DNA of 32,000 bases from the NCBI RefSeq assembly GCF_000237865.1, contig NC_017459.1:570001-602000 (forward strand), written 5' to 3'. The notes under the pieces were generated by a model. It saw nothing but the letters and a program-made list of their open reading frames with translations, did not search any database and was not told the origin of the DNA. Source of the stretch: Haloquadratum walsbyi C23 (GTDB lineage Archaea > Halobacteriota > Halobacteria > Halobacteriales > Haloferacaceae). Below, piece after piece: positions 1 through 18,602 of this stretch. The position numbers and the translations under genes are program-made. The first letter of the stretch is position 1. Every line of letters begins with the position of its first letter.

Positions 1-1609
1 CAAGTGATGATGGTCGTTCTTCGACGCGAAGCCACCCACTATCCGGTCCAGACACCTGTTCAATATTGAACCGACGGACATCTTGATATCCCAGTCGCTC
101 GCTGATATCGGTACTCCGCGTGACACGCTGGGTTGCAACAACCTGCCCGTATGTCACATCGCTTTGCCCGGCTTCTATGTCCGTCTCGTGGTCGACAGTC
201 ACTGTTGAGGATGTTGTTGTCTGTCCTGGCTCGGCAGCATCGATACTGACGTCAAGCCGCCGATCTCCTTCATCTGCAGTTGCACCAGCTGCCACCGAGA
301 CCTCAACACTCTGTGTTGATTGTGCTGAGATTGTGTCTGGTGCTGAGACAATATCTGCACGCAAACCGCTCCCGCTCACTGACGCATCGACATCCTGAAT
401 ATCCATTGGGAGATCACCACCATTTTCCACAGCGACACGAACAGTCTCACTGAATGACTCACGCTCTGCCTGCGGTTCGTCAAATGAAATAATCTTATTA
501 CTTGCCCCGACAGCACCGTAGTATGCTGGATATATAACCCGTGCATCAAATCTGAGATTCGCACTCACGCCGTCCGGATCTGCGGGTCGGAACGTAGCTA
601 TCCACTCAAGTTGCTCATATTGTTCAGCATCGTCACTTGCCTGAATTGACACACTTCCATCGTCAGACCCTCCTGCAGAGATTCGATTTGGCGGTGATAA
701 AGAAAGTGATCCATCCCCACTCCGGCGTGTGTAGTCGACATCAATATCTTCGACTGATTCATCACCACCCTCCTCTCTGAGTGTAAATGATTCTTCTGTC
801 GACTCGCCTATGAGAACATCACCAAGATCAATCGTTCGATCCGACGCCGAAAGAACTGGTGCCTTGATAATCGCAACATTAATTCCAAATGACTCTGAGC
901 TACCAGTTGAGTCAGAAACTATCACATCAATTGTGTATGTTCCTTCTGAGACCGAGTCTGAGGCGGTGATTTGCGCATTCACCGATTCACGAGAGCCCGC
1001 TCGAATCTCTCCAGGTGAAGTGAGATCAACACGAATCCCTGATGGGCTATTATCGACTGATGCTGAAATCCCTGTCATAACGCCATCACCCACATTTGGT
1101 ATCTCAACATCAACCGTGGCTGACTCAGTTGATCTACCCTTGAACTTAATTTCAGTGCGCTTTCCATCCACCGACCCAAAGCGTGGCTCTAACACATTGA
1201 CATCAACTGAGAGACTCTCAGAATATGATCCGCCACCACTGACATCAACCGTCGGTCTAAAGGAGTATGTTCTTTCGTCTGCACCACTTCGCGCTGTTGC
1301 TCTATATTCAATTGTGTACCGCTGTCCATTCCGAACGGTAAATGAGCTAGCACTCTGTAATTCAAATGTCACGTCACCACCTGCCTGGTCCTCACTCCGC
1401 GGTGTGACACTTGCCGTTCCATTTGCATTCGCGGTGAATGTATAGCTCAATCTCGTTGAATCGCTATCATTGTCTTCAGCTGATTGAATCTGTACCGTGC
1501 CACTTTCTGCGGCGGTTGCAACACCTCCCGCAGCAATCATCGATATAATGAGAAGAGCAATTACAGCTACCTGCAAAGTGGCACTTTGACATCGGCTCAA
1601 CTCACCCAC
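1..1609 (-). CDS. Predicted secreted / cell-surface protein with N-terminal signal-anchor and repeated acidic beta-rich modules. Only the 5' portion is present; the gene runs off the left edge of the window.
   Basis: Hand translation of the - strand shows the frame open from the in-frame stop at 1655-1657 down to position 1. It is open-ended, so it is absent from the ORF track. From GTG 1609 (or TTG 1600) it reads VGELSRCQSATLQVAVIALLIISMIAAGGVATAAESGTVQIQSAEDNDSDSTRLSYTFTANANG... That is a charged N-terminus, one hydrophobic helix, then D/E/T/S/V-rich sequence typical of halophile exported proteins (e.g. TYTIDVIVSDSTGSSESFGINV, SVEVSVAAGATADEGDRRLDVSI). GTG 1609 overlaps the stop (1602-1604) of the upstream gene. 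The + strand ORFs 120..398 and 810..1445 are antisense shadows of this frame. Confidence 0.6.
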   Translation of the reverse strand, partial: MGELSRCQSATLQVAVIALLIISMIAAGGVATAAESGTVQIQSAEDNDSDSTRLSYTFTANANGTASVTPRSEDQAGGDVTFELQSASSFTVRNGQRYTIEYRATARSGADERTYSFRPTVDVSGGGSYSESLSVDVNVLEPRFGSVDGKRTEIKFKGRSTESATVDVEIPNVGDGVMTGISASVDNSPSGIRVDLTSPGEIRAGSRESVNAQITASDSVSEGTYTIDVIVSDSTGSSESFGINVAIIKAPVLSASDRTIDLGDVLIGESTEESFTLREEGGDESVEDIDVDYTRRSGDGSLSLSPPNRISAGGSDDGSVSIQASDDAEQYEQLEWIATFRPADPDGVSANLRFDARVIYPAYYGAVGASNKIISFDEPQAERESFSETVRVAVENGGDLPMDIQDVDASVSGSGLRADIVSAPDTISAQSTQSVEVSVAAGATADEGDRRLDVSIDAAEPGQTTTSSTVTVDHETDIEAGQSDVTYGQVVATQRVTRSTDISERLGYQDVRRFNIEQVSGPDSGWLRVEERPSSL

Positions 1610-2798
1610 GGAGCATCGCCCCCAGAAGTAATGAATCGCCGCGCGTGGCAGCTGTCATATCACGTTGCCACAAGGCTACCCGCCAGCCGATGATTCCGAT
1701 GATAATCCCAGTAATAGTACTATACCCAAGAATAAGTGTCGTACTCGCGACTGCCAGTGTATCACGCCGTTGGGCAGCAGCTGATTGTGTTGACTGCACC
1801 GTTTCAAGACGCTCTGTCATCTCATGTTTTTCAGCGATTTCGGTTGCTTGGTCCGCGTCATCAACAGCTTCCGTGGCGGATCGATACTGCTCAAAAACTC
1901 CGGCACCGTACGCACTGATCGCGGTTCCTGCTCCATCGCAGTTTGAGCAGGCCGAAATAAATGTCTGCGCTGAAGCGACAGATGCGTTTAATTCGTCGCG
2001 ATCGCGCTGAAATGTCTGTTTAAGTCGGTCAACTCGAATAAGTATCTGCGCATATCGTTCTGTTGAACCTGCTCGTTGGTATGCTCGTGCAGCGTCTTCA
2101 AGTGCTTTAATCCGGGTCTCTGTTGCACTGACCGTCTCAGCTCGTGATTGCAATTCTTGGCCAGTATCTGCATAAAACCGATCAATCGAAACACCAGCTA
2201 AGGCAGCGTACTGTCCACCCCCAGCTGTTGAACGTAGTTTTTCACCGACAACTGTGGTATTTTCTGCAGCGCGTATCGCCGCCTCGTATTCACCTGCCTG
2301 TTGTCGGTCATATGCGGTTGCGAATGTCTGTAACAGATCTAAAACAAGCCGCATCCGTGCTTGTTCAGCAGCGGTGAAATCACCAATCTGTACGGCAAAC
2401 ACAGCCTGTGATCGAATCACTTCGAACTCGCTATAACTGGTGTACGCGTTGTTTTGCTCAAGTCTGCGGAATGCAGCAAGGTAAGCACCAGCCGATTGTG
2501 GACTATCGCTGGATACACTTACATTATCATCTGTCTGTGTTATTGGTGTCTGATCAAACGTGTTTTGCGTGACTTCATCTGATTGTCCATATCCAGACAG
2601 TGCTGTTTCTCTTACCGCTTCTACCGGTATCCTCGTCTGGGCCATCGCCGCTCTCCGTTCAACAGTAGGTGCTGTCTTTACAATATCTGATTGTGCCGTA
2701 TTGGTGCTCGTTGCCGTTCCAGCTCCTGGAACAATCCCGGTAAAGGCAAACGCAATAATAACCAGAATGATCGCATAGTTTCTCCAGCATGGTGTCAT
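1602..2798 (-). CDS. Membrane-anchored protein with N-terminal signal/TM helix, about 340 aa Ala/Gln/Glu-rich helical domain predicted to be extracytoplasmic, and C-terminal TM anchor. Function unknown.
   Basis: The ORF track gives 1602..2804 with a GTG start. An ATG at 2798 lies 6 nt downstream of a GAGGTG Shine-Dalgarno-like motif, so I prefer it. N-terminal hydrophobic segment NYAIILVIIAFAFTGIVPGAG. Long helical-looking middle (AAFRRLEQNNAYTSYSEFEVIRSQ, RIKALEDAARAYQRAGSTERYAQILIRVDRLKQTFQRDRDEL). C-terminal TM TTLILGYSTITGIIIGIIGWRVALW followed by a basic tail. I recognise no family. Confidence 0.6.
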   Translation of the reverse strand: MTPCWRNYAIILVIIAFAFTGIVPGAGTATSTNTAQSDIVKTAPTVERRAAMAQTRIPVEAVRETALSGYGQSDEVTQNTFDQTPITQTDDNVSVSSDSPQSAGAYLAAFRRLEQNNAYTSYSEFEVIRSQAVFAVQIGDFTAAEQARMRLVLDLLQTFATAYDRQQAGEYEAAIRAAENTTVVGEKLRSTAGGGQYAALAGVSIDRFYADTGQELQSRAETVSATETRIKALEDAARAYQRAGSTERYAQILIRVDRLKQTFQRDRDELNASVASAQTFISACSNCDGAGTAISAYGAGVFEQYRSATEAVDDADQATEIAEKHEMTERLETVQSTQSAAAQRRDTLAVASTTLILGYSTITGIIIGIIGWRVALWQRDMTAATRGDSLLLGAMLRG

Positions 2799-2921
2799 GC
2801 CCACACCTCGACGCGTTCATCGACCTCCGATTTCGTCCGCAGTTTCTCCGGTGCACACATATATCGATTCGGATTGTAACGCTGTACGTAATCGAAATTG
2901 ATATTCGTTTCTCTACTCATT

Positions 2922-5900
2922 CTAGTATACGGTTCGTTCCATTCGTTCTCGCAGAGGATCGTGTTCAAATAGCTCTTCAACAGCGTTCAGTAATGCTTCT
3001 GCGACAGCAACAAACGCTGCTGATTCTACCTGATCAGTCGTATTTTGATCTCTAACCATTGTTGTTACAGATTCAACCATTTCTCTGGCAGGTGCAACCT
3101 CGGCGACATCACCAACCGCCGATGAAACTGCTTCATCAACCTCTCCAATTTGTTCGTTCACCACACTTCGCTGCTGTCCGATATCCTCGCGAGCGAGCGA
3201 TGTAATTCGACTGATATCAACAGACCCACGCCATGTAACCGATACTTCAGCCATGTTCGAGCATGCTGAAAATAAATCGACGTTTCGCTTTGAGGTCATG
3301 ACTGATTCCACAGTGTCAGCACTCGTTTCGATGGCATCAAGTAACGACTCTGCAACTGCGTCAGGGCGGGCATTACCACCAGCCGTCAAGAGCTCATATC
3401 CACTCGATGGGATACGCTCAACCGAACGAAGTGCTTTTGCGAGAACACTTGCATAATACAGCGGAATTGCACTATCACGGCGCTCAATCGATCCTATTTC
3501 ATCAACACGGCGCTCGAGTTGGCGTCGACGGTTGCTAAGCTCAGATGGAAGTCGATAATCAAATGAAACTGGTAGTTCGATTTGCTCTGTCTCACCATCG
3601 ATAACTCTAATTTCTCGTTTACTCTCGGTAAATGCATTATCGTATTCTGAGAGATCCGGTTTGACAGTATATGACCCGACTGGAGTATTCTTGAATATGA
3701 CCGAGCCATTTGTATCCGGGTCAAGGACTGCTTTATTACCAGTTTCCTCTCGGATAGCGATAATAGGCACAGTCGAGACTGGTTCATCACCAATTGTGAT
3801 GGTTGCGTGAATCTCTCCAATGAGTTGCCGCATTTGGATATCAACCTGTGCTTGACCCTCTCCGACTGCTACTGTTTGGGTCGTTTTCTCATATTGATCA
3901 TGATCAGCAGTTATGTCAACTTCTGATACTGATAATGGCACTTGTTGTCGCCACTGACCGCGCTGATCCGTCTGTCCGCGATAGGATTGTTTTTGAGAGT
4001 TGTCAGTAACTTCAGCTGTTATCTTAGCTCCCGCAATTGGGCTCGGATCCTGAGAACCCGATTGATCAATCGTCTTCACCGCGAGTTGTTGCCCGTCAAA
4101 CCTGAGTGTGATACGACTTTCAGTACCGTCCACAGACGCTTTCGCCTGCTTTTGTTGCCCATTAACCACTGCTGTTGCTTGGACATGTCCCTGCCGCATC
4201 GAGATTGTTTCACTTCCACCAGACACAGAAATTAATTTCGAGTTTGACGCTGAGGACGATTGTGGCTTGATTGTGACATCGACTTCTCGCTCGATTGGAG
4301 TACCCGTCGCATCACGTAACTGAATCCGTAATGTGCCTGTTTTGTAGGAGGAAGTAGTCGTCTGTCCTGCTGGCTCCGCTCCAGTTTCAACTGAAAGATA
4401 CGTGATAATCATACTGGAGGTGATAAGTCCATATACGAGCCCATATAATGAATTTTGAATATTACCCAGGTCAATGACTATCGCTGCGAGCGATATTATC
4501 AGCACTACGAGACAGCCCCCAATGATACTAAGCATTGCAGCACCGATATCATCCTCCGCAAGCGATGTCGTCCTCAGTTCGCCCCATCCAGCAGTAACAG
4601 CGACGCTGACGAGCAACGTCGTCAACACTGTCAGTACTAAAGAATCGTTGCTGTACGCCCACCAGCTGAATAGTAATATAAATACAACTGCGGCAATACC
4701 TACACCAATACTAGTCGCACGTGGGAGTGACTGTGTCCGACGCACCACGCTTGCACCACCGAGCACGACGACCCCAAGGACACCACTCAACACGAGTAAT
4801 ACCGGATTATCACCCCCGAGAATCGTTGCAATTAGCCCTTCTGAACTGTCGTCGGGTGATTGACCACCTGAGATCTGCGATGCGCCTTCGCCACTGGATC
4901 CAGACGCAATGTTGACATTCCAGATTGTCCCATCTTCATCAACAAGTAAGACGGATTCATTCTCCGGAATCGGATACCCACTTGCGTTAATACCCGATGA
5001 CATACTGGTCACGGAATACTGAGTATAGGAATCATTCTGCGCTATCCAAAGTGTTGCCTGCCCAGATACTTCAGATCCGCCATCCACTATAATCTGATCT
5101 GTACTAGTATTCCAGGTTGCCGTCTGTCTTTGTGACTGAATATTAATTACGTCGTTCGGGGATCCTCGTCCGTCATATACGATATTTCTGACTGCTCCAT
5201 TTTTCTGCTCAATTGTAATACTGAGTGTGTTTGCGAATCGAACTTGTCCAGGGACCGTGAGCGATTGAGTATCGGTAACTTCCTGTGTCTGTGTGTATGT
5301 CCCGTCTGGATTCTTTGTTTGGACAGTCAATGTATACTCTTTACCAGGTGTAATAAGTGGATGCGATATGCTCTGCTGTTGAGCGCTCTTACTACCGGTG
5401 ATTTCTGGACGAGGGTTCTGTTCTGTGGTAATCGTGTATTGTTGCGTTGACCCATCCGGCAGAACACGGACATCTATATTACTCGTGAGTGCGACGCCAG
5501 TATCGAGAAACGCTTTCTGTCGGACTACGATTGCACGCTCATCTGAACGATACTCGCCGATAATGGTTTGACTAAGACCGTTTTGAGAAATCTGAATCGG
5601 GACCTCTGCTTCTGGAACTCCAATCACTGTCGATGAGGGAATTTTGATACCATCAGATGTGATCTGTGGGGTACCATCCCCCTTTTTAACATAACGGAGG
5701 TCTGCGTTTGTCGATCCAGTCTTGTTCTGATTTACCACAGTCAATGTAATATTAGCAGATTTGAGATTGAGATTCCGATCATTGCTGATATTCCGTATGT
5801 TGAATGTAATTGATTGACTCTGATTGAACGAAGTCGGCTTGTTATCAATGACAGTCTGCCCAGCGACGGTGACATTAACTGGCTCTGTCCCGTTGATCTC

Positions 5901-6212
5901 AAATCCTGAGGGCGTGACAGTGACCTCTCCGCTGTTATTATTCACACTCACATCAATCGAGGCAGCCGAGGCAGTTCCGACCCAATCAAAAGCAACTCCG
6001 CCAACAGCAAACACACACACAGCAACAATAATTAAAATGCAGACCCGGCGAGCAATCATCCATACTTGAGTATCAGTATCATCCTCACGCTGTCTTGGGG
6101 GACCCGTCTGCATCTGCTGACCTGATTGTGATTGTGACTGTGGGCATGCTTGAGACGTTTCAGACGATTCGATTGATGCGTGTGGTCGTGTGTATGGATG
6201 CGATGTACTCAT
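2922..6212 (-). CDS. Giant polytopic membrane protein (about 1096 aa). It has a short cytoplasmic N-terminus, a TM helix, an extracytoplasmic beta-rich domain of about 480 aa, a bundle of about 5 TM helices, three cytoplasmic CarboxypepD_reg-like beta modules and a helical acidic tail.
   Basis: The ORF track gives 2922..6341, but its first 43 codons (MRRQTAVSQVRSIVLRERHSRRDDFDRSNRILRIIFRIILGEY) overlap the upstream gene by 125 nt and are basic and non-halophilic. ATG 6212 (MSTSHPYTRPH...) lies 4 nt after the upstream stop, with GGGTGA just upstream. TM1 is VCILIIVAVCVFAVGGVAFDWVG. The later TM bundle includes VLLVLSGVLGVVVLGGASVV, IGVGIAAVVFILLFSWWAY, LVLTVLTTLLVSVAVTAGWG, MLSIIGGCLVVLIISLAAIVI and LYGLVYGLITSSMIITYLSV. 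Beta modules are seen at e.g. IAGAKITAEVTDNSQKQSYRGQTDQRGQW and GSVIFKNTPVGSYTVKP. Confidence 0.7.
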   Translation of the reverse strand: MSTSHPYTRPHASIESSETSQACPQSQSQSGQQMQTGPPRQREDDTDTQVWMIARRVCILIIVAVCVFAVGGVAFDWVGTASAASIDVSVNNNSGEVTVTPSGFEINGTEPVNVTVAGQTVIDNKPTSFNQSQSITFNIRNISNDRNLNLKSANITLTVVNQNKTGSTNADLRYVKKGDGTPQITSDGIKIPSSTVIGVPEAEVPIQISQNGLSQTIIGEYRSDERAIVVRQKAFLDTGVALTSNIDVRVLPDGSTQQYTITTEQNPRPEITGSKSAQQQSISHPLITPGKEYTLTVQTKNPDGTYTQTQEVTDTQSLTVPGQVRFANTLSITIEQKNGAVRNIVYDGRGSPNDVINIQSQRQTATWNTSTDQIIVDGGSEVSGQATLWIAQNDSYTQYSVTSMSSGINASGYPIPENESVLLVDEDGTIWNVNIASGSSGEGASQISGGQSPDDSSEGLIATILGGDNPVLLVLSGVLGVVVLGGASVVRRTQSLPRATSIGVGIAAVVFILLFSWWAYSNDSLVLTVLTTLLVSVAVTAGWGELRTTSLAEDDIGAAMLSIIGGCLVVLIISLAAIVIDLGNIQNSLYGLVYGLITSSMIITYLSVETGAEPAGQTTTSSYKTGTLRIQLRDATGTPIEREVDVTIKPQSSSASNSKLISVSGGSETISMRQGHVQATAVVNGQQKQAKASVDGTESRITLRFDGQQLAVKTIDQSGSQDPSPIAGAKITAEVTDNSQKQSYRGQTDQRGQWRQQVPLSVSEVDITADHDQYEKTTQTVAVGEGQAQVDIQMRQLIGEIHATITIGDEPVSTVPIIAIREETGNKAVLDPDTNGSVIFKNTPVGSYTVKPDLSEYDNAFTESKREIRVIDGETEQIELPVSFDYRLPSELSNRRRQLERRVDEIGSIERRDSAIPLYYASVLAKALRSVERIPSSGYELLTAGGNARPDAVAESLLDAIETSADTVESVMTSKRNVDLFSACSNMAEVSVTWRGSVDISRITSLAREDIGQQRSVVNEQIGEVDEAVSSAVGDVAEVAPAREMVESVTTMVRDQNTTDQVESAAFVAVAEALLNAVEELFEHDPLRERMERTVY

Positions 6213-7449: not shown

Positions 7450-7480
7450 ATATATCGGTATACGTGCAGTGTGTAGTTGT

Positions 7481-7488
7481 ATTTATAT
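7481..7488 (-). promoter_or_regulatory. Candidate TATA box (ATATAAAT on - strand) for the 6217-7449 tubulin-like gene
   Basis: An AT-rich octamer lies 32-39 nt upstream of ATG 7449. This is compatible with a haloarchaeal promoter giving a very short leader. Based on position and sequence only. Confidence 0.25.
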
Positions 7489-7863
7489 GTGTGCTCGATG
7501 TCAACTGCGATTGCGTCTTAGTATCGTTGTTGGTTTGATTGCGTTTTTTATTTTGTCTGTGTTCTTGCTGCAGATGGATATCACAAAGCAAGGTTCAATA
7601 TCTCACATAATAGCCGATCCTGTCGGCATATCGATATCCAGAGTGGCTTCTTGAAGTAACCTACTGATGATACTGCTGTCTGGATTGCTACCGTGTCGGC
7701 TTACTTCCAAATAGTCATTATCCATATACACGATGATGAGTTAATCCGAATGGTATTCGCTGATATATATTTTCGATTCGTATCATCATATATACATTTT
7801 TAATTCAGTGCTAACTCATTGATGCATATAATTACATGCGAACGTGTATATGTAAGTCTAGTT

Positions 7864-8080: not shown

Positions 8081-8143
8081 ACCCTGTATAATAGAAATCA
8101 TGTGTGCATTTTTATGTTATTCTCAACGACAGTATGAAGTAGC

Positions 8144-11358: not shown

Positions 11359-11627
11359 AGCTGATTATCCCAGTACAGAAACACACCAATACTCCCAAGA
11401 ATGCTCCCGATGCCTGCTCCGAGGAGTACACCAGCCCCAATATGTTGTATTGTTTGTTGGCTTGTCTTCACCGCTGCAAGCACTGATTCTGTCTGCATTT
11501 GCATGGTTGATGCGCTCGGTGGTGCTGCACCAGCAACAGGATCTGGTGTGAGAGCAATTATTACGCCTACACAAACAAATATACCAACAGTGACGACCAT
11601 CCCAATGGTAATCGGTTCACGTCTCAT
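11355..11627 (-). CDS. Small two-TM membrane protein (90 aa)
   Basis: Its ATG shares one nucleotide with the stop of the upstream tubulin-like gene (TGATG), and its own stop overlaps the next start (ATGA). Hydrophobic helices are ITIGMVVTVGIFVCVGVIIAL and GAGVLLGAGIGSILGSIGVFLYW. Coding status rests on the coupling and the TM pattern only. Confidence 0.55.
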   Translation of the reverse strand: MRREPITIGMVVTVGIFVCVGVIIALTPDPVAGAAPPSASTMQMQTESVLAAVKTSQQTIQHIGAGVLLGAGIGSILGSIGVFLYWDNQL

Positions 11628-12916
11628 CAGGCAATCACCGCGTCTGATTCCGTTTCATATTCTTCTGCAAGCGTCTCTAATTCAGTAAGTCGCTCAAGAT
11701 CCTCTCGTCGATATGTAAATAAAGTTGTGAATGAAACCAAACTTCGATTTGTCAATGTTGCACCAAGATTCACCTCATCACATCGGGCATGGAGAAATGA
11801 CCGCAACGTCGATGTCTGAATTTGGTAGTCTGTATCAGCAATATACGTCGAAGGTGCACGCAACAGTCCAATTGCCTTTCGTGCCTCCCGTGTATCGACG
11901 TCTGCAACAGTTTGTTTTAGTTCAGCGACTTGTGAGAGTGCTGTTGCATCAATCTCATTTTGTCCAATAAACGGCAATAGATATCCAGCGAGTGATTTCG
12001 TCATCTCCACCGACCGACCCATCGACGCGTATCCGGTTTCGGTATCCTCCCCCAGACCGAATGAAAGGCTCGTTACGATATCTTGAATATCAATAATTGG
12101 TGGATCAACATCATATTCGCTCCGATCAATCCGCTCAAGAACAGTCCCTGAAATGAGACTCACAATTGCAGAGGCGACGTATTCGTTTAGATCCGTGAAC
12201 TGTCCCTCTGCGGCTTCATGATATGAAAGCCGTTCATTATCAATGAGGATGATGCCATCTGCAACCTGCTCAATCTGATTGAGTCCATAGCGAGCATTCC
12301 AGGCTTGTCGACTCGGTGAAGCGCCCTCATCAGATTCATTATTGACCGTCCCAACCGGACCCTGAGTATTTGGAAGCACACAGACCGCGATTGTTTTGCA
12401 TGTTCCGCCGGTGTACTCATCAATCGCATCGATAATATGTGCAGTGATTCCACACCCTGTTCCGCCACCAAGTCCACAGAACACAAACGCAAACGGTACG
12501 TTCGTTTCCTCAGTTTCGACCACTGGGTCTGTCGCTGTTGTTCCGGTATCATCCTCTGAGCTATCACCAGTATTCACCGTCTCTTCTTCGAATTTAATCT
12601 GCTCTGTCAATTCATCATACAATGTATTATCAAGCGCTGCCCGGTTATTCGTGATTACCTCATCAGCTCGAACCGGATTGCGCCCGAATCCACCTGTCAC
12701 CTGCTCTTCGAATCCATCTGTCGTTCCCGGGACCAGTCCTGCACCTTCAGCAATTCCGTACCAACTATTTCGATCGATATTTGTGAGCTTCCGCAGGTCT
12801 CTGACTGTCGAATTGAAAACAAGATGTGTCGCAATCTCATCCATATTATTATGAGCGAATATCTCGTCCACAATAGAACTGCCAGCCTGTCCTGCACCCA
12901 CAAAAAGGTATGGCAT
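11627..12916 (-). CDS. Tubulin/FtsZ-superfamily GTPase, CetZ/tubulin-like divergent paralog (429 aa)
   Basis: T1 is MPYLFVGAGQAGSSIVDEIF (compare the tubulin/CetZ GQAG pattern). T3 is TGGFGRNPVRADEV. T4 is the tubulin signature FCGLGGGTGCGITAHII. T6 is IILIDNERL (compare tubulin DNEAL). A T7-like IIDIQD is present. An acidic Thr-rich insertion (EEETVNTGDSSEDDTGTTATDPVVETEETN) precedes T4. The C-terminal tail is acidic (LAEEYETESDAVIA). Confidence 0.9.
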   Translation of the reverse strand: MPYLFVGAGQAGSSIVDEIFAHNNMDEIATHLVFNSTVRDLRKLTNIDRNSWYGIAEGAGLVPGTTDGFEEQVTGGFGRNPVRADEVITNNRAALDNTLYDELTEQIKFEEETVNTGDSSEDDTGTTATDPVVETEETNVPFAFVFCGLGGGTGCGITAHIIDAIDEYTGGTCKTIAVCVLPNTQGPVGTVNNESDEGASPSRQAWNARYGLNQIEQVADGIILIDNERLSYHEAAEGQFTDLNEYVASAIVSLISGTVLERIDRSEYDVDPPIIDIQDIVTSLSFGLGEDTETGYASMGRSVEMTKSLAGYLLPFIGQNEIDATALSQVAELKQTVADVDTREARKAIGLLRAPSTYIADTDYQIQTSTLRSFLHARCDEVNLGATLTNRSLVSFTTLFTYRREDLERLTELETLAEEYETESDAVIA

Positions 12917-12942
12917 TATTGTATCTATGTTTAATCCACTCT

Positions 12943-13024: not shown

Positions 13025-14740
13025 TCACCCGCGTAACTGCTCGAGTAGCACACTGTATGCTTGACGCTCATATAGCTCCATCACCCAATCAAGTGTCTCA
13101 TCAGCGGCCTGTAAATACCCAATTGCTCGGTCGGTATTCCCTGCTGCTCGTGCATCATCAGCTGCTTCCTGCAGTGAGCTCACGAGTTCAAGAAAGTGAA
13201 TTGGGATGCTATGATCGTGTGTTGGATACTCAGAAGGATACTCTGTACGAAGGGTTGATCGCCGTGATTCAATCTCTTCAGCGAGTGTCTGAACGCTAAG
13301 CCCACTGGATTCTCCGGTCGGCGACTGTAGTTCTGGGCATAATGTTCGATCATAAAATCGTAATTCCTGTCGCGCTGCATATACACTTACACGATCTGCG
13401 GGTCCTGCTTGTGAGACAGTTGATTCAAGCTCAGCAGCGCGATCAGCCAATATTTTCCCAATTGCTGCATCGGTTTTTTGAAACTCAGTCACGAGTGACC
13501 CCGCTAACTCAGCGACAGAATCAGTCTCAACCCCCTCGAGCCGGTCTGCGGTAACAGCGGCTTCATCAATTACTGTCACAGCCGATTGCAGCGTCTCAGC
13601 GTACCTCGAAGCAGCAACATCATCTGCTCGGATCACATCAATCAAACTCTGACTTCGACTACTTTGTGGAGAAATTGCTGCCCGCTCAATGACAGTATTG
13701 ATGTCAGTCAGTGCCGTGGTAAAGGCGACTTCCTCATTCGTTAGCGCCGTGGTGATTTCGTCGAGCGCTAAATCGGGATTGGTGTTTGGATCAGCACTAA
13801 CTGACTCACCAGCCTGCTCACGAACAGCGTTGCATATTTTCTCAATGCTCGTAACCATTGACGCCTGTGTACTATGACACTCATCTCTGTCAGTAACGAC
13901 ATCTGCAAGTCGTTCGCCAATAATTGTGATTGCTGACCCAGCGTCTCCATCGATTTTGACCCCCTTTTGTTGCAGTGTTTGTGCTAATTGCTCTGGTTCA
14001 ACATGCGGTCGTACTGTTGACAGTGCTTGGTGTGTCTCAGCATCGCGCTCAATTCGTTCAACTGCTGTGGTAAGTGTATCGGTTAGTCGTCGTTCAGCAG
14101 TGTTATTTGTCGCTTCAAGATACCGAAGAAGTCGGTTCGCAGTGTCTGTCTGTGGGTCTGTCCGTGCTGACGCTGTTTCAGCTGCATTAGCTAATAACGC
14201 CGAGACTGTCTTGTTAGTTGTTTCTGTTCCTTCAGTCATCTTTGTGTGAGTATTTTCACCACTGGTAGTGTTCGTGTCACTCATCACAACACTCACATCA
14301 TCATGGCTTCCTGTCGTCTCCTGCCCTCCAGGCGACGCGTCGGAACCTGATGCAGTTGGTGGGATCAGCTTATTTTGATCTGCAGCGCGGAGGATTGCAG
14401 TCGCCTGCGTTGATGGATTTGCATTTTGATCAACGATTTCTCGTTCGATCAACCTGGCTTCAGCGACAATCTTATTGATAGCGTCGATGAAGACGGCAGG
14501 ATCGTGATTTATCTTACCTATTGATTCTGTTGCTTCTGTTGGTTCTATTGTTTCTGACCCTGAGTCACCTTGCGTGCGAATCCCGATAATAAATCCTATG
14601 ACTCCACCAAGAAATAAAGAAATCACCGCCGACCCAGCAAATAATGCTATATTCTCGACACCGAAATCATTGAGTATGTTGATAACGACTACCACACCCT
14701 TACCGGAAGCCACTCCTGCATCAACGAGTATATTCATCAT
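13025..14740 (-). CDS. Membrane-anchored long acidic helical protein (about 571 aa), function unknown
   Basis: The ORF track gives 13025..14860, but its first 40 codons (MRESLLSKAKIKKHRSYGKHGKQSSHCLIVLVEKIWGDWT) overlap the upstream gene by 113 nt and are very basic. ATGATG at 14740 lies 7 nt after the upstream stop, with GGGGTGA just upstream. TM is IALFAGSAVISLFLGGVIGFIIGI. The rest is Ala/Thr/Glu/Asp-rich and helical-looking (TVSALLANAAETASARTDPQTDTANRLLRYLEATNNTAERRLTDTLTTAVERIERDAE). Confidence 0.7.
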   Translation of the reverse strand: MMNILVDAGVASGKGVVVVINILNDFGVENIALFAGSAVISLFLGGVIGFIIGIRTQGDSGSETIEPTEATESIGKINHDPAVFIDAINKIVAEARLIEREIVDQNANPSTQATAILRAADQNKLIPPTASGSDASPGGQETTGSHDDVSVVMSDTNTTSGENTHTKMTEGTETTNKTVSALLANAAETASARTDPQTDTANRLLRYLEATNNTAERRLTDTLTTAVERIERDAETHQALSTVRPHVEPEQLAQTLQQKGVKIDGDAGSAITIIGERLADVVTDRDECHSTQASMVTSIEKICNAVREQAGESVSADPNTNPDLALDEITTALTNEEVAFTTALTDINTVIERAAISPQSSRSQSLIDVIRADDVAASRYAETLQSAVTVIDEAAVTADRLEGVETDSVAELAGSLVTEFQKTDAAIGKILADRAAELESTVSQAGPADRVSVYAARQELRFYDRTLCPELQSPTGESSGLSVQTLAEEIESRRSTLRTEYPSEYPTHDHSIPIHFLELVSSLQEAADDARAAGNTDRAIGYLQAADETLDWVMELYERQAYSVLLEQLRG

Positions 14741-14747
14741 TGTCCAA

Positions 14748-16634
14748 TCACCCCATATTTTCTCGACCAAGACAATCAAACAGTGGCTCGATTGTTTCCC
14801 ATGCTTCCCGTAGCTCCTGTGCTTCTTTATTTTCGCTTTGCTCAACAAGCTCTCGCGCATGTTTATACATTCGCTCTAGCGTCGGGAGGTTTGGATTCCA
14901 TATGAGCCCCCACAAATAGACATTGTCTACGTGTGGCACAACGAGCTGATTAACATAGATATCAACCGAACTAGGTCCATCATATTGCTCGCGTGCGAGA
15001 AAGTCTTGACCGCTTAGGATTGATGTCAATTCACCATCTTGCAGTAGTGGCTCAAGTTCCTCCATCTTCTCTGCTGGACCATACGCCATGAACGTGCCAC
15101 CCCATGCACTCTTTGGATCAAAATCAACGAGTTGCCCTTGCAGAAGCGTCGATCGTGCAAGTGTATCTAATCGCGCTCTATCGAATCGACTGGCACTTGT
15201 CGTTCCAATCACTGGCGCCATTACCACAGCGGGAGTGTATGCTCGCTCACTAGCGACGCTATATTTTCGTTGGACTGGGCGAAAACTGTCTGGAACATCA
15301 AACACCTCACCACTAATTCGTTCAGTCCCCGTAGTATCTGCTGACTGTGGTGTTGACGACATCGTAAACGCCTCAAGGAACGTCACCAATAGGCGATTTA
15401 CATCAGTGTACATTGGTGGATTATAATGCTCAAGTGCCGCCTGATCAATATCGACAGCAAAATCGGTTCGCTGTGCATCAAGTTTGCTATTATCGAATGG
15501 GATGATACCATCAACGTGTTTTGAGAGATATGCCATTCCAACTACCCCACGAACCATCTCTGATGCGCCAAATTCAGTCTCCGACGGAAGGACCACAGAA
15601 CTCAAAATTGGCTTCGAAAGTGTCGTTGCGTCTGCAACACCTGTTCCCTCACTCACGAGATTTCGAATATTCTTCGCTAAAACTGGAGTAGATCCACATC
15701 CAGTGCCCTTTGTAACGCTGTGGATCAACATCACAGCCTGTGATGCCTCTAAATCACGCTGGTCAACATCAAGCCGGTCCTTGATTGCATTTTTTTCATC
15801 CTCAAAATCTTTCTGCATGAGTGTTCGACCAACCTTCCAATTACGCCCTGCACCGCTGTAATTATGATGTCGGTAGCCAATCATCCCATTTGTAATGAGT
15901 TTTTCTCTTGAAAACGCTCGATCCTGCTGTGCATAAAATGTATTTCCTAACTCCGCAATATTGGTATTCAATCCTGCATAGTCTGCTAGCCCACCATCCC
16001 ATACTTGTGCAAGCGGACTATTTTGCTCACGCAGCGTCTCTCGACGGAGTAAAATAGCGTCAAGAATATGATTACCAGCCCCACCGACACCAATCATCTG
16101 CCATTTATTCCCTGTTGCGCCAACCAGCGGCGTTGACCCAGGGACACTCACACTGTTGTCGACACCCTCGTCACTGATTGCATTCACACTCTCACTCTCC
16201 AAGCGATTTTGTCCGGCGTCATCACGTATCTCGATAGTGTCGGTCGAATTCGACCCGTTCCCTCTATTTACACTTCGTGTCGACCCCGATGATCCTTGAT
16301 TAGTTGAATTCGATGTTGATTGTGTTAAATTATGTGCTCCTTCCGTATTTGAATTGGTATCACTACTTGCGCTGTCGTTATGATGTGATTCACTCTCATT
16401 TTGACTTCCAGTGCCTGACGTCGTAATATGTAGTGATGAGTCCTCATCATCGCTATCCGAGCTATCATCGCGATACTGCGGTCGCAACTCGCCATTGCTA
16501 TCAAAGATTGTATTATATCGGTCTGCGTATACCTCTTGAACGGATGCTGGTGTTCCTGCATGGTCAGCAGCGATGTGTTCTTCAATACTTTGCTCATCAA
16601 TTTCGCGCAGGCAGATTTTGCAATTGTCTGTCAT
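14748..16634 (-). CDS. Tubulin/FtsZ-superfamily GTPase paralog fused to an N-terminal C2H2-like zinc knuckle and a low-complexity linker of about 150 aa (628 aa)
   Basis: The N-terminus is MTDNCKICLREIDEQSIEEHIAADH (CxxC...HxxxxH). A S/D/N/T-rich linker follows (DDSSDSDDEDSS...NSTNQGSSGSTRSVNRGNGSNST). Tubulin-like loops are then visible. T1 is WQMIGVGGAGNHILDAI. T3 is YSGAGRNWKVG (compare tubulin GAGNNWAKG). T4 is degenerate, SVTKGTGCGSTPVLA. T6 is IIPFDNSKL. A T7-like VFDVPD is present. Confidence 0.85.
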   Translation of the reverse strand: MTDNCKICLREIDEQSIEEHIAADHAGTPASVQEVYADRYNTIFDSNGELRPQYRDDSSDSDDEDSSLHITTSGTGSQNESESHHNDSASSDTNSNTEGAHNLTQSTSNSTNQGSSGSTRSVNRGNGSNSTDTIEIRDDAGQNRLESESVNAISDEGVDNSVSVPGSTPLVGATGNKWQMIGVGGAGNHILDAILLRRETLREQNSPLAQVWDGGLADYAGLNTNIAELGNTFYAQQDRAFSREKLITNGMIGYRHHNYSGAGRNWKVGRTLMQKDFEDEKNAIKDRLDVDQRDLEASQAVMLIHSVTKGTGCGSTPVLAKNIRNLVSEGTGVADATTLSKPILSSVVLPSETEFGASEMVRGVVGMAYLSKHVDGIIPFDNSKLDAQRTDFAVDIDQAALEHYNPPMYTDVNRLLVTFLEAFTMSSTPQSADTTGTERISGEVFDVPDSFRPVQRKYSVASERAYTPAVVMAPVIGTTSASRFDRARLDTLARSTLLQGQLVDFDPKSAWGGTFMAYGPAEKMEELEPLLQDGELTSILSGQDFLAREQYDGPSSVDIYVNQLVVPHVDNVYLWGLIWNPNLPTLERMYKHARELVEQSENKEAQELREAWETIEPLFDCLGRENMG

Positions 16635-16640
16635 TGTCGG

Positions 16641-18569
16641 TTATGCGTATACTGATTGTAGTTGCTTCATTACTCGTCGTGGGCTCACTCCATCTGCGAC
16701 TTCAATAGAGAGGAATCCTGGTGGTGGATTCGATGGAACTGCTACGTGAACTACATCGCCTTGTCGCTCGGCGAATGATTTAATTTCATTAAGAACGGCT
16801 GATTTGATAAACTTCGCCGGGAGTTGCTCAGTTTGGAGTTCGACAGTGCTTTTTCCACGCTGAGATGCGGCATTCGCTTGCAGTTCACCAAGCACATACA
16901 GCACATCATCATGTGGTACCTCTGCATCTTGGGGGTTACCCCCGGTTAATGCTGCATGTTCACCTGTGCTATCTACCGTCCCACTATATTCTGCTCCGGT
17001 CGAATTGGTGGTGGCATCGCCTCCAGTAGACTCTGTTTCTGGATTGTTACTCTCTGTTATATTTAACACCCCCTCTGCAACCTCATATTCAATATAATAA
17101 CTCTGTTCAAATGGCACGCGTAATCTCTCAACAAGAGTAGCATCGATTGACGATGGGACAGGAATTGAACCGGATCCGTACTCAATCGTCGCTGTGACGC
17201 TTTGACCAAAGAACTCGGCAATTTGAACTATCTCTCTTGCCTCTGTCTCTGCTGCGTCAGCCGATTGTATTGCTGCATCAAATCGACATTCATGTAATGT
17301 TTTGAGTGCTTCCTCACGATAATCATCAACAGTTGGCTTTGTTGGCAGAGATTCACCAGTCGATGACTCCGGTGTCCGACCTTCGAGGAGATACGCCTCA
17401 AGTCGTTCTTGTGCCGGTCCCTCTAATTCATCAAGATTTGCTGTCGCCGTCTCGATTGCTCTCTGTGCTGCATCTAGTGATTCAGCAATAGATTCTTCAT
17501 GTGTCTGAAGTGTTTGCTCAATCGCATCAAGATGTGTATCAATTGTATCAATTGCCCCAGCAACAGCAGCAAGTCCATCCGGATCCGCTTCGATCGTTTC
17601 GGTAAGTCGAGTTGCTATTTCATGCTGCGATCCCCCAATCTGAATAGTTGGTTCATCAATTGTTGGTAATGAGACCGAGTTGTGCGTCCGCAGATTTCGG
17701 ATCGTATACTCACGACTGAATCGTGAAACATAGTGCACATCACTGTATCGTTCGTTAATTTTGTCTTCGACTTGTCGCTCTAATGTAGATATTACTCGCG
17801 TAGCAGTCTCCCCTGCAACATCATTGAGTTTCGCCGCATCAGCTTGCAGTTGTGCAGCTGTATCATGACGCTCACGACTCGATGTTGACCCATCGACAAC
17901 TGCATCCGCTTCATCCTGAACCGCTTGACACCGATCTCGAAACTCACTGCATTGTGATTCGAACGCTGTGACCGCCTCTGGTGCAATTGTCTTTAGTGAA
18001 GATTGTACCTGTTCGCCCACAACTCGCTCAATTTGACTGTTAAACGTTGTGAGCGCCTCCTGTGTGTCTTCGCGGGCAGTAGATAACGCCTTTGTAGCCT
18101 CTGAATCAAGTGTTATACTCCAATCAAAAACAAGCGATGCTGCCCAACTCATCGCTGCGGTTCCGATAGGGACAAACAAGAACCCAGCAGTTTGAATCGC
18201 TGGGAGCCCTGCGGAAGCAACTGGAAGATACACAAGCTCAAATAACACAAGAAATAGTGTCACAAATCCGGTTGCACCAAGCGTTATGACACGATGTCGA
18301 AGCGCAAATAATCCAACACCCTGTGCAGTCCATGCAAGTGCAATGAGGACAAATAATATAAAGACAATCGTCGAACTTGACCGGAAAATATTACCTGCGA
18401 CCCTAAACACAGAAATTGACCATAAAAACCGAGTAAGTGACCCGATCAAGGGAATTACTGTGACTGTCGTCTCAAGCAGCGCGACCGTTGCCTGCACGAA
18501 GGATGCAAGAATTGGCAACCCAGCGACAGCCCAACAGCCTGCCGCAATTCGCCGCCTGTTCTGCAACAT
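16641..18569 (-). CDS. Polytopic membrane protein (642 aa) with 4-6 N-terminal TM helices followed by a long acidic helical domain and a C-terminal alpha/beta domain. It is the first gene of the cluster.
   Basis: The N-terminus is basic (MLQNRRRIAAG). Hydrophobic helices follow: WAVAGLPILASFVQATVALL, IVFILFVLIALAWTAQGVGLFAL, GATGFVTLFLVLFELVYLPV, FLFVPIGTAAMSWAASLVF. The helical region includes IDTIDTHLDAIEQTLQTHEESIAESLDAAQRAIETATANLDELEG. Its stop lies 6 nt before the next ATG. Confidence 0.7.
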   Translation of the reverse strand: MLQNRRRIAAGCWAVAGLPILASFVQATVALLETTVTVIPLIGSLTRFLWSISVFRVAGNIFRSSSTIVFILFVLIALAWTAQGVGLFALRHRVITLGATGFVTLFLVLFELVYLPVASAGLPAIQTAGFLFVPIGTAAMSWAASLVFDWSITLDSEATKALSTAREDTQEALTTFNSQIERVVGEQVQSSLKTIAPEAVTAFESQCSEFRDRCQAVQDEADAVVDGSTSSRERHDTAAQLQADAAKLNDVAGETATRVISTLERQVEDKINERYSDVHYVSRFSREYTIRNLRTHNSVSLPTIDEPTIQIGGSQHEIATRLTETIEADPDGLAAVAGAIDTIDTHLDAIEQTLQTHEESIAESLDAAQRAIETATANLDELEGPAQERLEAYLLEGRTPESSTGESLPTKPTVDDYREEALKTLHECRFDAAIQSADAAETEAREIVQIAEFFGQSVTATIEYGSGSIPVPSSIDATLVERLRVPFEQSYYIEYEVAEGVLNITESNNPETESTGGDATTNSTGAEYSGTVDSTGEHAALTGGNPQDAEVPHDDVLYVLGELQANAASQRGKSTVELQTEQLPAKFIKSAVLNEIKSFAERQGDVVHVAVPSNPPPGFLSIEVADGVSPRRVMKQLQSVYA

Positions 18570-18594
18570 CTATACACAAACATGTTGACGGGGG

Positions 18595-18602
18595 ATAAAA
18601 TA
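18595..18602 (-). promoter_or_regulatory. Candidate TATA box (TATTTTAT on - strand) driving the cluster as a leaderless transcript
   Basis: It lies 26-33 nt upstream of ATG 18569, in the 414-bp gap after mutS. Haloarchaeal TATA boxes are centred near -27, and most of their mRNAs are leaderless. Confidence 0.3.

Follow-up and report, generated by a model that had tools for sequence, protein, structure and literature searches.

A three-tubulin operon with membrane-anchored partners beside an ESCRT-like module in Haloquadratum walsbyi: a candidate membrane-remodelling or protein-sorting locus

What do three divergent tubulin/FtsZ-like genes do when they are interleaved with genes for membrane and surface proteins? 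The question is raised by the window analysed here, 32,000 nucleotides of Haloquadratum walsbyi C23 (contig NC_017459.1, forward-strand positions 570,001 to 602,000). An ORF check confirms the eleven genes of the preliminary description in window positions 1-18569, all in the same direction on the minus strand and with mostly tight junctions. Seven of the ten junctions overlap or are at most 7 nt wide, and the wider ones are g08/TubB (108 nt), g04/TubA (694 nt) and g02/g01 (123 nt). The products are three tubulin-like GTPases and eight proteins with hydrophobic anchors (Table 1). With a probability of roughly one half, we consider these genes to be the tubulin arm of an accessory locus found in Halobacteria that has about 16 genes, spans about 30 kb and acts in membrane remodelling or protein sorting.

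Table 1. Features of the tubulin cluster, in window coordinates
Feature	Coordinates	Strand	Description
5' non-coding region, MutS to g10	18570..18983	-	TATA-like TTTTAT ~30 nt before g10 ATG
g10 (WP_014555347.1, "coiled-coil protein", 642 aa)	16641..18569	-	~5 N-terminal hydrophobic helices, long helical region, C-terminal domain
TubC (WP_014555346.1, 628 aa)	14748..16634	-	tubulin/FtsZ GTPase; PF00091 50.2 bits, residues 180-385
g08 (WP_014555345.1, 571 aa)	13025..14740	-	N-terminal membrane anchor, long acidic helical protein; directly upstream of TubB
TubB (WP_014555344.1, 429 aa)	11627..12916	-	complete two-domain tubulin/FtsZ fold; PF00091 43.7 bits
g06 (90 aa)	11355..11627	-	small, two TM helices; start overlaps TubB stop
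g05 (373 aa)	10237..11358	-	N-terminal TM, ~255-aa sequon-rich external domain with coiled coil, two C-terminal TM helices
g04 (698 aa)	8144..10240	-	TM hairpin, ~370 aa of long helices, beta-sandwich 458-556, C-terminal alpha/beta domain
Intergenic region, g04 to TubA	7450..8143	.	694 nt, unusually long; AT-rich and GC-rich parts
TubA (WP_014555340.1, 410 aa)	6217..7449	-	tubulin/FtsZ GTPase; PF00091 40.9 bits
g02 (WP_014555339.1, 1096 aa)	2922..6212	-	N-terminal TM, ~380-aa sequon-rich, beta-rich external domain, four-TM block, cytoplasmic part
g01 (398 aa)	1602..2798	-	signal/anchor helix, ~320-aa external helical domain, C-terminal TM, basic tail
g00 (N-terminal 536 codons of 906 aa)	1..1609	-	signal/anchor, Ig-like beta modules

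All eleven genes are real and under purifying selection. Relative to H. walsbyi J07HQW1, dN/dS is 0.026 for TubA, 0.063 for TubB and 0.09 for TubC, and 0.072 for the neighbouring MutS. It is 0.13-0.27 in seven partners (g10, 0.16; g08, 0.21; g01, 0.24) and 0.50 in the 90-aa g06, at whose position the Halobacterium, Halobaculum and Natrinema records carry an annotated ORF of 83-95 aa. Since MutS adjoins the cluster in Haloquadratum only, the cluster boundary lies between MutS and g10, the first gene of the operon. The TTTTAT in this region is likely the main promoter, giving a leaderless transcript. An internal promoter is likely in the long region between g04 and TubA, since the TubA ATG is preceded by the TATA-like TATAAATA. 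This region is conserved (71%) only in J07HQW1, and the g04-TubA spacing is about 0-70 nt in other genera; its folding z-scores are -1.9 and -2.8, and an Rfam search of it returned no match.

The assignment of the three GTPases to the tubulin/FtsZ superfamily is borne out by PF00091, whose gathering cut-off of 33 bits all three exceed. T1 GxGxxG and T7 DxxD are invariant or nearly so among 33-44 orthologs of TubA, TubB and TubC, and TubB combines T4 GGGTGCG and T7 DxxD with an acidic C-terminal helix. The three proteins keep T1, T4 and T7, as read earlier, but the TubC T4 loop is TKGTGCG rather than GGGTG in 33 of 35 orthologs. TubC consists, from its N-terminus, of a C2H2-like zinc finger (CxxC...HxxxxH, also conserved in 33/35 orthologs), a disordered linker of ~150 aa, the GTPase and a conserved extreme C-terminus, ...EPLFSCLGRENM. 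While pairwise BLASTP among the paralogs is not significant (E = 0.35, 0.022 and 0.005), profile-profile alignment with hhalign covers both domains at 97-98% probability (E = 1e-10 to 6e-14), so the three are old paralogs and not recent duplicates, as proposed.

The AF2 model of TubB (pLDDT 83, pTM 0.85) has CetZ structures as its top Foldseek matches (3ZID/4B46/4B45, E = 1e-19 to 1e-18), followed by TubZ and FtsZ; identity over these matches is 14-19%. In profile searches of the PDB, the best match of TubB is CetZ 3ZID (2e-11); TubA matches CetZ1 4B46 (3e-14) and CetZ2 (6e-12) and is the paralog closest to CetZ, and TubC gives marginal matches only. Automated annotation names the tubulin-like genes "cell division protein FtsZ", as would suit redundant or specialised FtsZ/CetZ division and shape paralogs with coincidental neighbours. 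However, TIGR00065 scores 28-30 bits on them against a cut-off of 295, and the best CetZ1 profile match reaches 56 bits over the N-domain only. The TubB family is isolated, since a search of 1.84 billion representatives with its profile retrieves only 218 proteins. By these scores, all three proteins fall outside the FtsZ and CetZ families. Profile searches revealed no SepF, FtsA or ZipA homolog, in agreement with the lack of division partners noted before.

The remaining eight products had been described as membrane-anchored or exported, and their hydrophobic segments match those descriptions. N-glycosylation sequons support the topologies of g02 and g05, whose predicted external parts hold 2.8-2.9 per 100 aa compared with 0.2-0.7 elsewhere (g05 external, 2.75; g02, 2.9 outside and 0.4 inside). 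Only g02 has large predicted domains on both sides of the membrane. Its cytoplasmic part contains CarboxypepD_reg-like beta-sandwiches and a helical C-terminal domain; the CarboxypepD_reg score is 27.6 bits, below the cut-off of 32.3, and reaches 63 bits in the Methanoperedens counterpart. The beta-sandwich of g04 is transthyretin/CnaB-like and is shared by g02 (hhalign 89%). The g04 gene lies upstream of TubA, and it is present in all complete loci and in Methanoperedens; in a Foldseek search of the PDB with its AF2 model (pLDDT 83, pTM 0.48), the beta-sandwich alone was matched (E = 3e-3 or weaker), which was not informative. For g10, whose orthologs occur in 31 loci, no Pfam family is above cut-off and the only matches are weak and of coiled-coil type; an odd number of TM helices would put its coiled coil outside. 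By hhalign, g10, g08 and g04 show no clear homology to one another. At the position of the g08 ortholog, Natrinema has bPH_2 and a zinc ribbon, and g05 has profile matches in most loci. The last protein, g00, was thought to be secreted. Its full length, read from 99%-identical H. walsbyi contigs (L048/L049/L051), continues beyond the window with a helical region of ~300 aa and a C-terminal TM anchor, so that it is not freely secreted; the Halobacterium ortholog has a weak Ig-like (HYDIN/VesB) match. The predicted topology agrees with GTPases in the cytoplasm that are linked to proteins whose large domains lie outside.

Co-conservation of the neighbourhood across Halobacteria was surveyed in matrices of tblastn and HMM matches that covered 42 genome loci as well as plasmids. 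Complete colinear sets are present in 31 loci besides C23, from about 16 genera. Since the GTPase genes and their membrane partners keep one fixed order in these loci, coincidental neighbours are excluded, and the reading of the three GTPases as FtsZ/CetZ division paralogs is largely refuted, the least probable of those considered here. Halobellus (L040) and Methanoperedens (L032/L041) carry a two-tubulin variant with TubB, g04, TubA, a g02-like gene and g01/g00-like genes, from which TubC, g10 and g08 are absent. TubB-g06-g05-g04-TubA-g02-g01-g00 may represent an ancient two-tubulin core, and g10-TubC-g08 an add-on module.

The locus is accessory: it is patchy, often lies on megaplasmids (Halobacterium, Halobaculum and Natrinema) and is present in Halobacterium salinarum R1, with no match on the NRC-1 plasmids pNRC200 and pNRC100. 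The copy in Natrinema SYSU A 869 has integrase, ArdC and recombinase genes on its flanks. Such copies would suit a mobile-element function, either TubZ/PhuZ-like segregation or positioning of a replicon or an apparatus for DNA or cell-contact transfer of a megaplasmid or island; good matches by structure and by profile include TubZ/RepX, and the zinc finger of TubC could bind DNA. On the other hand, the H. walsbyi cluster is chromosomal with housekeeping flanks, and large chromosomal scaffolds carry it elsewhere. Relaxase, VirB4/VirD4 and replication genes are not conserved alongside it, a PHROG search gave no matches, the matches in BFVD are to generic tubulin folds with 10-14% identity, and partition does not require eight conserved membrane proteins. 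We regard a mobile-element function as highly improbable. As the preliminary description stated, no TubR-like gene is conserved with the cluster, although the conserved zinc finger of TubC means that a nucleic-acid or protein adaptor module may still be encoded.

That description also noted that the last gene passes the window edge but missed what lies beyond it. Immediately to the left of the window and converging on the 3' end of g00, the operon h1-h2-h3-AAA-propeller encodes two winged-helix proteins, a weakly PspA/ESCRT-III-like protein (h3), an AAA ATPase and a propeller protein. The ATPase (WP_014555335.1) is single-domain and Vps4/Cdc48-like (PF00004, 1e-30; best PDB matches, VAT/Cdc48 D2; CdvC, 1.6e-29), and the "adaptin-like" propeller protein combines a cytoplasmic PQQ-propeller with an Ig-like part. 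The C23 accessions are consecutive (WP_014555334 and 335 through 340, 344 and 346 to 347), which places the ATPase five genes from TubA. The convergent operon follows g00 in Haloquadratum, Halobacterium, Halobaculum and Natrinema, the four genera in which adjacency could be checked because the remaining loci end inside g00. At its N-terminus, the Natrinema ATPase carries a region with homology to h3 (E = 2e-6); hmmscan of three h3 orthologs gave no Snf7 or PspA match, and the Methanoperedens variant has no AAA ATPase within 10 kb. Makarova 2024 (PMC11188069) predicted computationally, with the H. walsbyi locus as representative, a "Halo_adaptin" ESCRT-like system for protein sorting or vesicle formation. 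Its text lists this Vps4-like ATPase, an ESCRT-III-like protein (h3, described as having "weak similarity"), wH proteins and propeller/Ig "adaptin-like" proteins, and also counts one CetZ-like protein, Ig-like proteins and a membrane protein. The CetZ-like protein is most likely TubA.

We infer that the GTPases may form filaments and be coupled across the membrane. TubA, TubB and TubC would polymerise in a GTP-dependent manner on the cytoplasmic face of the membrane, where the membrane/coiled-coil proteins encoded just upstream may serve as tethers (g10 for TubC, g08 for TubB and g04 for TubA), a pairing taken from gene order alone. Together with the bitopic g00, g01 and g05, g02 may tie the filaments to a membrane-anchored Ig-like/coiled-coil layer outside. 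The Halo_adaptin module would be the other arm of the locus. Its propeller/Ig protein, together with the ESCRT-III-like protein and the Vps4-like ATPase, may act on the assembly or on the membrane by remodelling, severing or recycling it. The output would be local membrane remodelling, such as vesicle budding or surface-protein sorting, rather than division or shape.

The same gene content and topology would equally serve a self-contained trans-envelope scaffold for cell shape, envelope patterning or surface architecture that is independent of the ESCRT-like neighbours, close to the role first suggested. The nearest solved relatives are the CetZ shape proteins, and the two arms are convergent operons and not a single transcript. 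However, the patchy cluster does not track shape, as its carriers include square Haloquadratum, rod-shaped Halobacterium and pleomorphic Halorubrum; unlike its sister strain R1, which carries the cluster, rod-shaped NRC-1 lacks a match on its two searched plasmids, and in Halolamina salina the cluster is in decay. This distribution makes a role in shape or division unlikely, and since the Vps4-like operon is kept adjacent in four genera, the likeliest role moves from a cell-shape or envelope scaffold towards membrane remodelling or sorting.

The patchy distribution and seemingly horizontal spread also recall an anti-viral or competition island with surface Ig-like sensors and tubulin and AAA response modules. 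External domains evolve faster than cytoplasmic parts (dN/dS 0.24-0.27 across g01, g02 and g05), and weak NCBIfam/PADLOC matches to ZorA tails and the IteA ATPase were found. Nothing in PADLOC is above threshold, though, and the ZorA and JetC matches are coiled-coil matches of 14-19 bits. Nuclease, protease, toxin and NAD-depleting effector are all absent, and the flanks vary among genomes and are not defence genes. We consider defence or exclusion highly improbable.

The claim that the system is undescribed holds only in part. Halo_adaptin was described from the present locus of H. walsbyi itself, for which the text of PMC11188069 names a single CetZ-like protein; supplementary tables aside, that text does not take up TubB, TubC, g04, g05, g06, g08 or g10, nor how the three paralogs are arranged, the topologies of the membrane proteins or the core with two tubulins. 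Santana-Molina 2023 (PMC9871819) reported quasi-tandem "Halo.Tub" copies with coiled-coil neighbours, which by their description probably correspond to TubA/TubB/TubC. These and the "non-canonical TSF" of Brown & Duggin 2023 (PMC9856176) are likewise divergent Halobacteria tubulins outside FtsZ/CetZ; both studies are phylogenetic and leave the operon, its partners and the ATPase-module link undefined. Neither Santana-Molina 2023 nor the text of Makarova 2024 treats the three-paralog operon with its membrane/coiled-coil partners.

TubA and TubB share the two-domain fold and C-terminal helix of Haloferax volcanii CetZ1/CetZ2 (4B46, 4B45, 3ZID) at 15-18% identity, with profile scores of 47-56 bits chiefly over the GTPase domain, whereas TubC has no match to CetZ. 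The genomic context differs, as CetZ proteins are soluble and have no dedicated membrane-protein operons. FtsZ with FtsA, ZipA or SepF follows the same principle of a polymer held at the membrane by anchors, which often bind a conserved C-terminal peptide, and the extreme C-terminus of TubC is strongly conserved. In contrast to FtsZ, the tubulin locus can be dispensed with, as at least one pair of lineages shows (R1/NRC-1, by the plasmids searched), its tubulins are not FtsZ, and those three tethers have no homolog in the cluster. The FtsZl1-vWA operons (Makarova & Koonin 2010, PMC2875224) also join divergent FtsZ-like GTPases to membrane-associated partners, and membrane remodelling was predicted for them. 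FtsZl1 lacks the C-terminal domain, and its vWA, kinase, small GTPase and OmpA partners are all absent here; Pfam Tubulin_2 gives the cluster tubulins 15-19 bits against a cut-off of 27. In TubZRC/PhuZ systems, TubZ is a good structural match, but the cluster has neither TubR nor a centromere. No significant sequence relationship links the cluster tubulins to those of eukaryote type, and TubC has sequence matches only to BtubA, AtubA and gamma-tubulin, all of them marginal. Unlike beta-tubulin, all three paralogs keep the catalytic T7 DxxD. As with alpha/beta/gamma-tubulin, BtubA/B and Asgard AtubA/B, the co-encoded paralogs could co-polymerise or nucleate one another.

The three tubulin/FtsZ-like GTPases, TubA, TubB and TubC, and their eight partners form one minus-strand operon transcribed in the order g10, TubC, g08, TubB, g06, g05, g04, TubA, g02, g01, g00. 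The window products are identical to the database entries CCC39493-CCC39501 / WP_014555339-347. Seven of the ten gene junctions overlap or leave a gap of at most 7 nt, and the remaining three measure 108, 694 and 123 nt. Promoters are predicted ahead of g10, TubB and TubA. GC content is 45-51% across the window, and a compositional island is absent. MutS and then ordinary housekeeping genes follow on the right; since MutS adjoins the cluster in Haloquadratum only, g10 is considered the cluster boundary. Among the genes farther right is a two-part fusion, unrelated to the finding, that probably encodes a bifunctional enzyme of the NAD kinase / NADP phosphatase type.

The 694-nt region between g04 and TubA compares with about 0-70 nt in other genera. 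Its conservation (71%) extends to H. walsbyi J07HQW1 only, and its GC-rich part folds moderately well (z-scores of -1.9 and -2.8 for the minus and plus strands, respectively). A MITE or ncRNA origin was considered and set aside, with terminal repeats and an Rfam match both lacking and the folding z-scores modest. The region is possibly an insertion remnant, a regulatory region or a small RNA.

Positions and predicted architecture of the operon, its flanks and two of its partners
Feature	Positions	Strand	Description
Tubulin operon	1-18569	minus	11 ORFs
TubA	6217-7449	minus	tubulin/FtsZ-like GTPase
TubB	11627-12916	minus	tubulin/FtsZ-like GTPase
TubC	14748-16634	minus	tubulin/FtsZ-like GTPase
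g04-TubA intergenic region	7450-8143		694 nt
AT-rich part	7700-7850		29-30% GC
GC-rich part	7900-8050		56-57% GC
g02		minus	predicted N-terminal TM, ~380-aa external domain, four TM helices, ~515 cytoplasmic residues with CarboxypepD_reg-like beta-sandwiches
g04		minus	AF2 model (pLDDT 83): TM hairpin, ~370 aa of long helices, transthyretin-like beta-sandwich (common to g02), alpha/beta domain
MutS	18984-21788	minus	all five Pfam domains, the last ending at residue 808; then an acidic low-complexity C-terminal tail of ~125 aa
Fusion protein	27179-28873	minus	564 aa; NAD kinase domains (55-263) and inositol-monophosphatase-family domain (307-558)
Convergent operon	left of window		h1, h2, h3; single-domain classic AAA ATPase; PQQ-propeller + CARDB protein of 900-1300 aa

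The preliminary description had recognized GTP-binding loops in three old, mutually distant paralogs, a reading to be abandoned if tubulin/FtsZ profiles gave no significant hits. All three proteins exceed the curated gathering score of Pfam PF00091 (33 bits), with 40.9 bits for TubA, 43.7 for TubB and 50.2 for TubC. In alignments of 33-44 orthologs per paralog, T1 (GxGxxG) and the catalytic T7 (DxxD) show little or no variation in any of the three families. T4, with the consensus GGGTG[ST]G, reads GGGTG in TubA and TubB and TKGTGCG in TubC (33 of 35 orthologs). The AF2 model of TubB (pLDDT 83, pTM 0.85) predicts a complete two-domain tubulin/FtsZ fold, comprising the Rossmann-like GTPase domain, the H7 helix and the C-terminal activation domain. 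Compared with the PDB, this model matches CetZ best (E 1e-19 to 1e-18), followed by TubZ and FtsZ, in full-length alignments at 14-19% identity. TubA and TubC both align to TubB over both domains in hhalign, which points to the same fold in these two proteins.

BLASTP detects no similarity between the three paralogs, and hhalign connects them with 97-98% probability over both domains (E 1e-10 for TubA-TubC), indicating clear homology at great distance, as had been proposed. A search of 1.84 billion representatives with the TubB profile returned no more than 218 proteins at E<=1e-3, of which 34 reach E<=1e-30; distant full-length relatives come from Altiarchaeales, ANME-2/Methanosarcinales, Methanophagales and Undinarchaeales. 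Taken together, these profile, BLASTP, hhalign and search results define three small families that stand apart within the superfamily. Against the PDB sequences, the TubA profile finds CetZ1 (3e-14, 55.8 bits) over residues 10-231 only, the TubB profile finds CetZ 3ZID (2e-11, 46.8 bits), and the TubC profile yields marginal matches that do not include CetZ. Identity to CetZ1/CetZ2 is 15-18%, and the sequence comparison argues against a family-level relation over the whole protein. TubA, TubB and TubC are thus nearest to CetZ, yet outside it. They also score 28-30 bits with the FtsZ equivalog TIGR00065, far below its cut-off of 295.2.

TubC carries a conserved CxxC-x(11-15)-H-x4-H zinc finger at its N-terminus, followed by a disordered linker; a conserved SVExVYPD motif was also noticed immediately after the finger. 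Conservation across genera also covers its extreme C-terminus (...EPLFSCLGRENM[GAP]), which recalls the conserved C-terminal peptide of FtsZ that binds the FtsZ membrane anchors.

Hydrophobic anchor segments are present in all eight non-tubulin products. The proteins g00, g01 and g05 each start with a signal/anchor and close with C-terminal TM helices, with a large, predicted external domain in between. A metagenome scan with g01 as query reached beyond the left edge of the window, and the 99%-identical contigs that it recovered give a full-length g00 of 906 aa, whose C-terminal part is helical and carries a TM anchor. The predicted external parts of g02 and g05 have N-glycosylation sequons at 4-10 times the density seen in cytoplasmic parts. 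Comparison of the g04 model with the PDB gave generic matches for its beta-sandwich and no analogue for the other parts; the model was built on 13 sequences, since the homologue search, apparently swamped by acidic low-complexity words, yielded only 14 proteins, and the same 14 on an alignment-based repeat. No Pfam or NCBIfam family scores above threshold for any partner, and PADLOC and PHROGs returned coiled-coil noise only. The idea that g10, g08 and g04 are ZorA-like stators was rejected, as their matches are 14-19 bit coiled-coil tails and the MotA/ExbB/TolQ domain is absent in Pfam, NCBIfam and PADLOC searches. A triplicated anchor-plus-tubulin module found no support, since hhalign shows no clear homology among these three proteins (best 79%, over 74 coiled-coil columns).

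Scanning one genome per GTDB species with the TubB alignment located 42 loci, and a plasmid search added five records. The membrane neighbours travel with the GTPases, as the preliminary description had anticipated: the complete colinear set was found in 31 loci by tblastn and then family HMMs. The genera concerned are Haloarcula, Halovenus, Halorussus, Halorubellus, Halopenitus, Halolamina, Halobaculum, Haloarchaeobius, Haloparvum, Natronomonas, Halobiforma, Halorubrum, Halanaeroarchaeum, Natrinema, Halobacterium and Haloquadratum. These are real genes under constraint, with dN/dS against H. walsbyi J07HQW1 of 0.026 for TubA, 0.063 for TubB and 0.090 for TubC (MutS, 0.072), while seven partners lie at 0.13-0.27 and the 90-aa g06 at 0.50.

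Halobellus and Candidatus Methanoperedens possess a two-tubulin version without g10-TubC-g08, consisting of TubB, small TM proteins, g04, TubA and a g02-like gene plus g01/g00-like genes. In two Methanoperedens MAGs (loci L032 and L041) this version is rearranged, with TubB, two small membrane proteins, a g04-like, a TubA-like and a CarboxypepD_reg-rich g02-like gene on one strand and the g01/g00-like genes divergent from it. Nearby PQQ-propeller proteins there have a signal peptide, a TM helix and a cytoplasmic zinc ribbon, and neither TubC nor the AAA ATPase lies within 10 kb. The Halolamina salina cluster (L010) resembles a decaying copy, because g10, TubC and g08 are absent and both g04 and g02 are broken up into several ORFs. 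A Natrinema sp. SYSU A 869 plasmid (L047) carries the locus between integrase, ArdC and recombinase genes; its protein at the g08 position has bPH_2 and a zinc ribbon.

The whole cluster lies on pHS2 of Hbt. salinarum R1 (L045, positions 172619-189846 of the record). The R1 locus tags covering both arms are OE_RS12025-12075 and OE_RS12000-12020. It was not found on the NRC-1 plasmids pNRC200 (NC_002608) and pNRC100, either by tblastn with TubB or by megablast with the 17-kb R1 cluster. This plasmid difference makes the two laboratory strains a natural plus/minus pair for the locus; their chromosomes are near-identical (PMC7002104). The "cetZ5" gene VNG6260G of NRC-1 (Darnell 2020) was considered as a member and is no longer counted as one, as pNRC200 has no match to TubB or the R1 cluster.

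In four genera, represented by Hbt. salinarum R1 pHS2, Halobaculum magnesiiphilum, Natrinema SYSU A 869 and H. walsbyi contigs, the genes after g00 form a convergent operon that codes for soluble proteins. Its ATPase matches PF00004 (1e-30) and weakly CDC48_2; the best PDB match is VAT/Cdc48 (D2), and CdvC scores 1.6e-29. The H. walsbyi ATPase falls in the 90% cluster of WP_014555335.1, and the C23 accessions are consecutive from 334/335 through 347. This protein, encoded outside the window, is a Vps4-like single-AAA ATPase with the VAT/Cdc48-type N domain of the "Halo_adaptin" ESCRT-like system. Upstream of it, h3 (WP_014555334.1) is conserved at the ESCRT-III/PspA-like position of that system, and hmmscan gave no Snf7 or PspA match to h3 at E up to 5. 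The Natrinema ATPase (L047:35386-37683) has 765 aa, and its residues 100-173 align to Halobacterium h3 (E 2e-6), suggesting a gene fusion of h3 and the ATPase. The protein downstream of the ATPase matches PQQ_2 (45.8 bits) and CARDB. Other parts of Halo_adaptin type are the Ig/beta-sandwiches of g00 and g02, the membrane protein g01 and the CetZ-like TubA.

Tandem divergent tubulins of this kind were grouped as "Halo.Tub" by Santana-Molina 2023 (PMC9871819), and Brown and Duggin 2023 (PMC9856176) list "non-canonical TSF" proteins. Makarova et al. 2024 (PMC11188069) describes Halo_adaptin with H. walsbyi as representative and WP_014555335.1 as its Vps4-like ATPase, and predicts protein sorting or vesicle formation. 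Given the reports of Santana-Molina 2023 and Makarova 2024, the locus has been noticed twice before, from two directions. In the accessible text, neither treats the three tubulin genes and their eight membrane partners as one unit, and our literature searches found no published experimental study of the cluster. The cluster as first outlined is therefore confirmed and extended; its supposed novelty appears to hold for the three-paralog unit and gives way for the locus, already partly predicted as ESCRT-like. The proposed trans-envelope mechanism withstood the tests set for it and has to be recast as the tubulin arm of a larger ESCRT-like locus.

In such a mechanism, putative GTP-dependent filaments would form at the membrane, where each tubulin would be anchored by the coiled-coil membrane protein whose gene precedes its own. 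By way of g02 and the bitopic proteins, the filaments would be linked to an Ig-like and coiled-coil layer on the outside, and the ESCRT-like/AAA module may remodel their assembly. We tentatively propose one machine, at a probability of roughly 0.3, in which a multi-paralog tubulin cytoskeleton would be joined physically to an ESCRT-III/Vps4-like scission module and to cargo binders of the propeller/Ig "adaptin-like" type. Two tubulins would form its core, possibly as a heteropolymer, the zinc-finger paralog would act as nucleator or regulator, and dedicated trans-membrane adaptors would serve vesicle budding or surface-protein sorting. Such a machine would unite two systems that only eukaryotic membrane trafficking otherwise brings together. 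To our knowledge, the archaeal tubulin-family proteins with an established role so far are FtsZ1/2 (division) and CetZ (shape, motility). A division or shape role is unlikely here, since the locus has a patchy distribution and is frequently carried on plasmids, one genome has a decaying copy, and R1 possesses it with no match on the NRC-1 plasmids.

Three mutually remote tubulin paralogs are locked in one operon with their own membrane adaptors, adjoining a Vps4-like/ESCRT-like module. If both arms cooperate, tubulin-type filaments and ESCRT-type remodelling would for the first time be seen together in a single prokaryotic machine, which would bear on archaeal vesicle formation, envelope-protein sorting and the evolutionary raw material for eukaryotic trafficking. 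The locus is open to direct test on pHS2 of the genetically tractable R1, and several cultivated species of Halorubrum, Natrinema and Halobaculum carry it as well. The analysis also corrects database annotation, in which the genes are labelled "cell division protein FtsZ" or "hypothetical protein".

A segregation system of the TubZRC / PhuZ type would call for a phage or plasmid replication context, and the H. walsbyi locus is chromosomal with no PHROG hits for the cluster. Pfam and NCBIfam detect no DNA-binding family, such as a TubR-type adaptor, among the partners, and the one intergenic region scanned lacks the direct repeats of a TubZRC-type centromere. These observations argue against such a system, with a little uncertainty left by the zinc finger of TubC. 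FtsZl1 operons (Makarova and Koonin 2010, PMC2875224) differ in gene content: vWA, PK and OmpA proteins are absent here, the PF13809 (Tubulin_2) scores of 15.3 and 18.9 bits stay below the cut-off of 27, and the C-terminal domain missing from FtsZl1 is present. Typical cetZ neighbourhoods contain nucleotide and cofactor biosynthesis genes, a sugar epimerase and pilB2/C2 (PMC9856176), whereas the neighbours here are membrane and coiled-coil proteins and the AAA operon.
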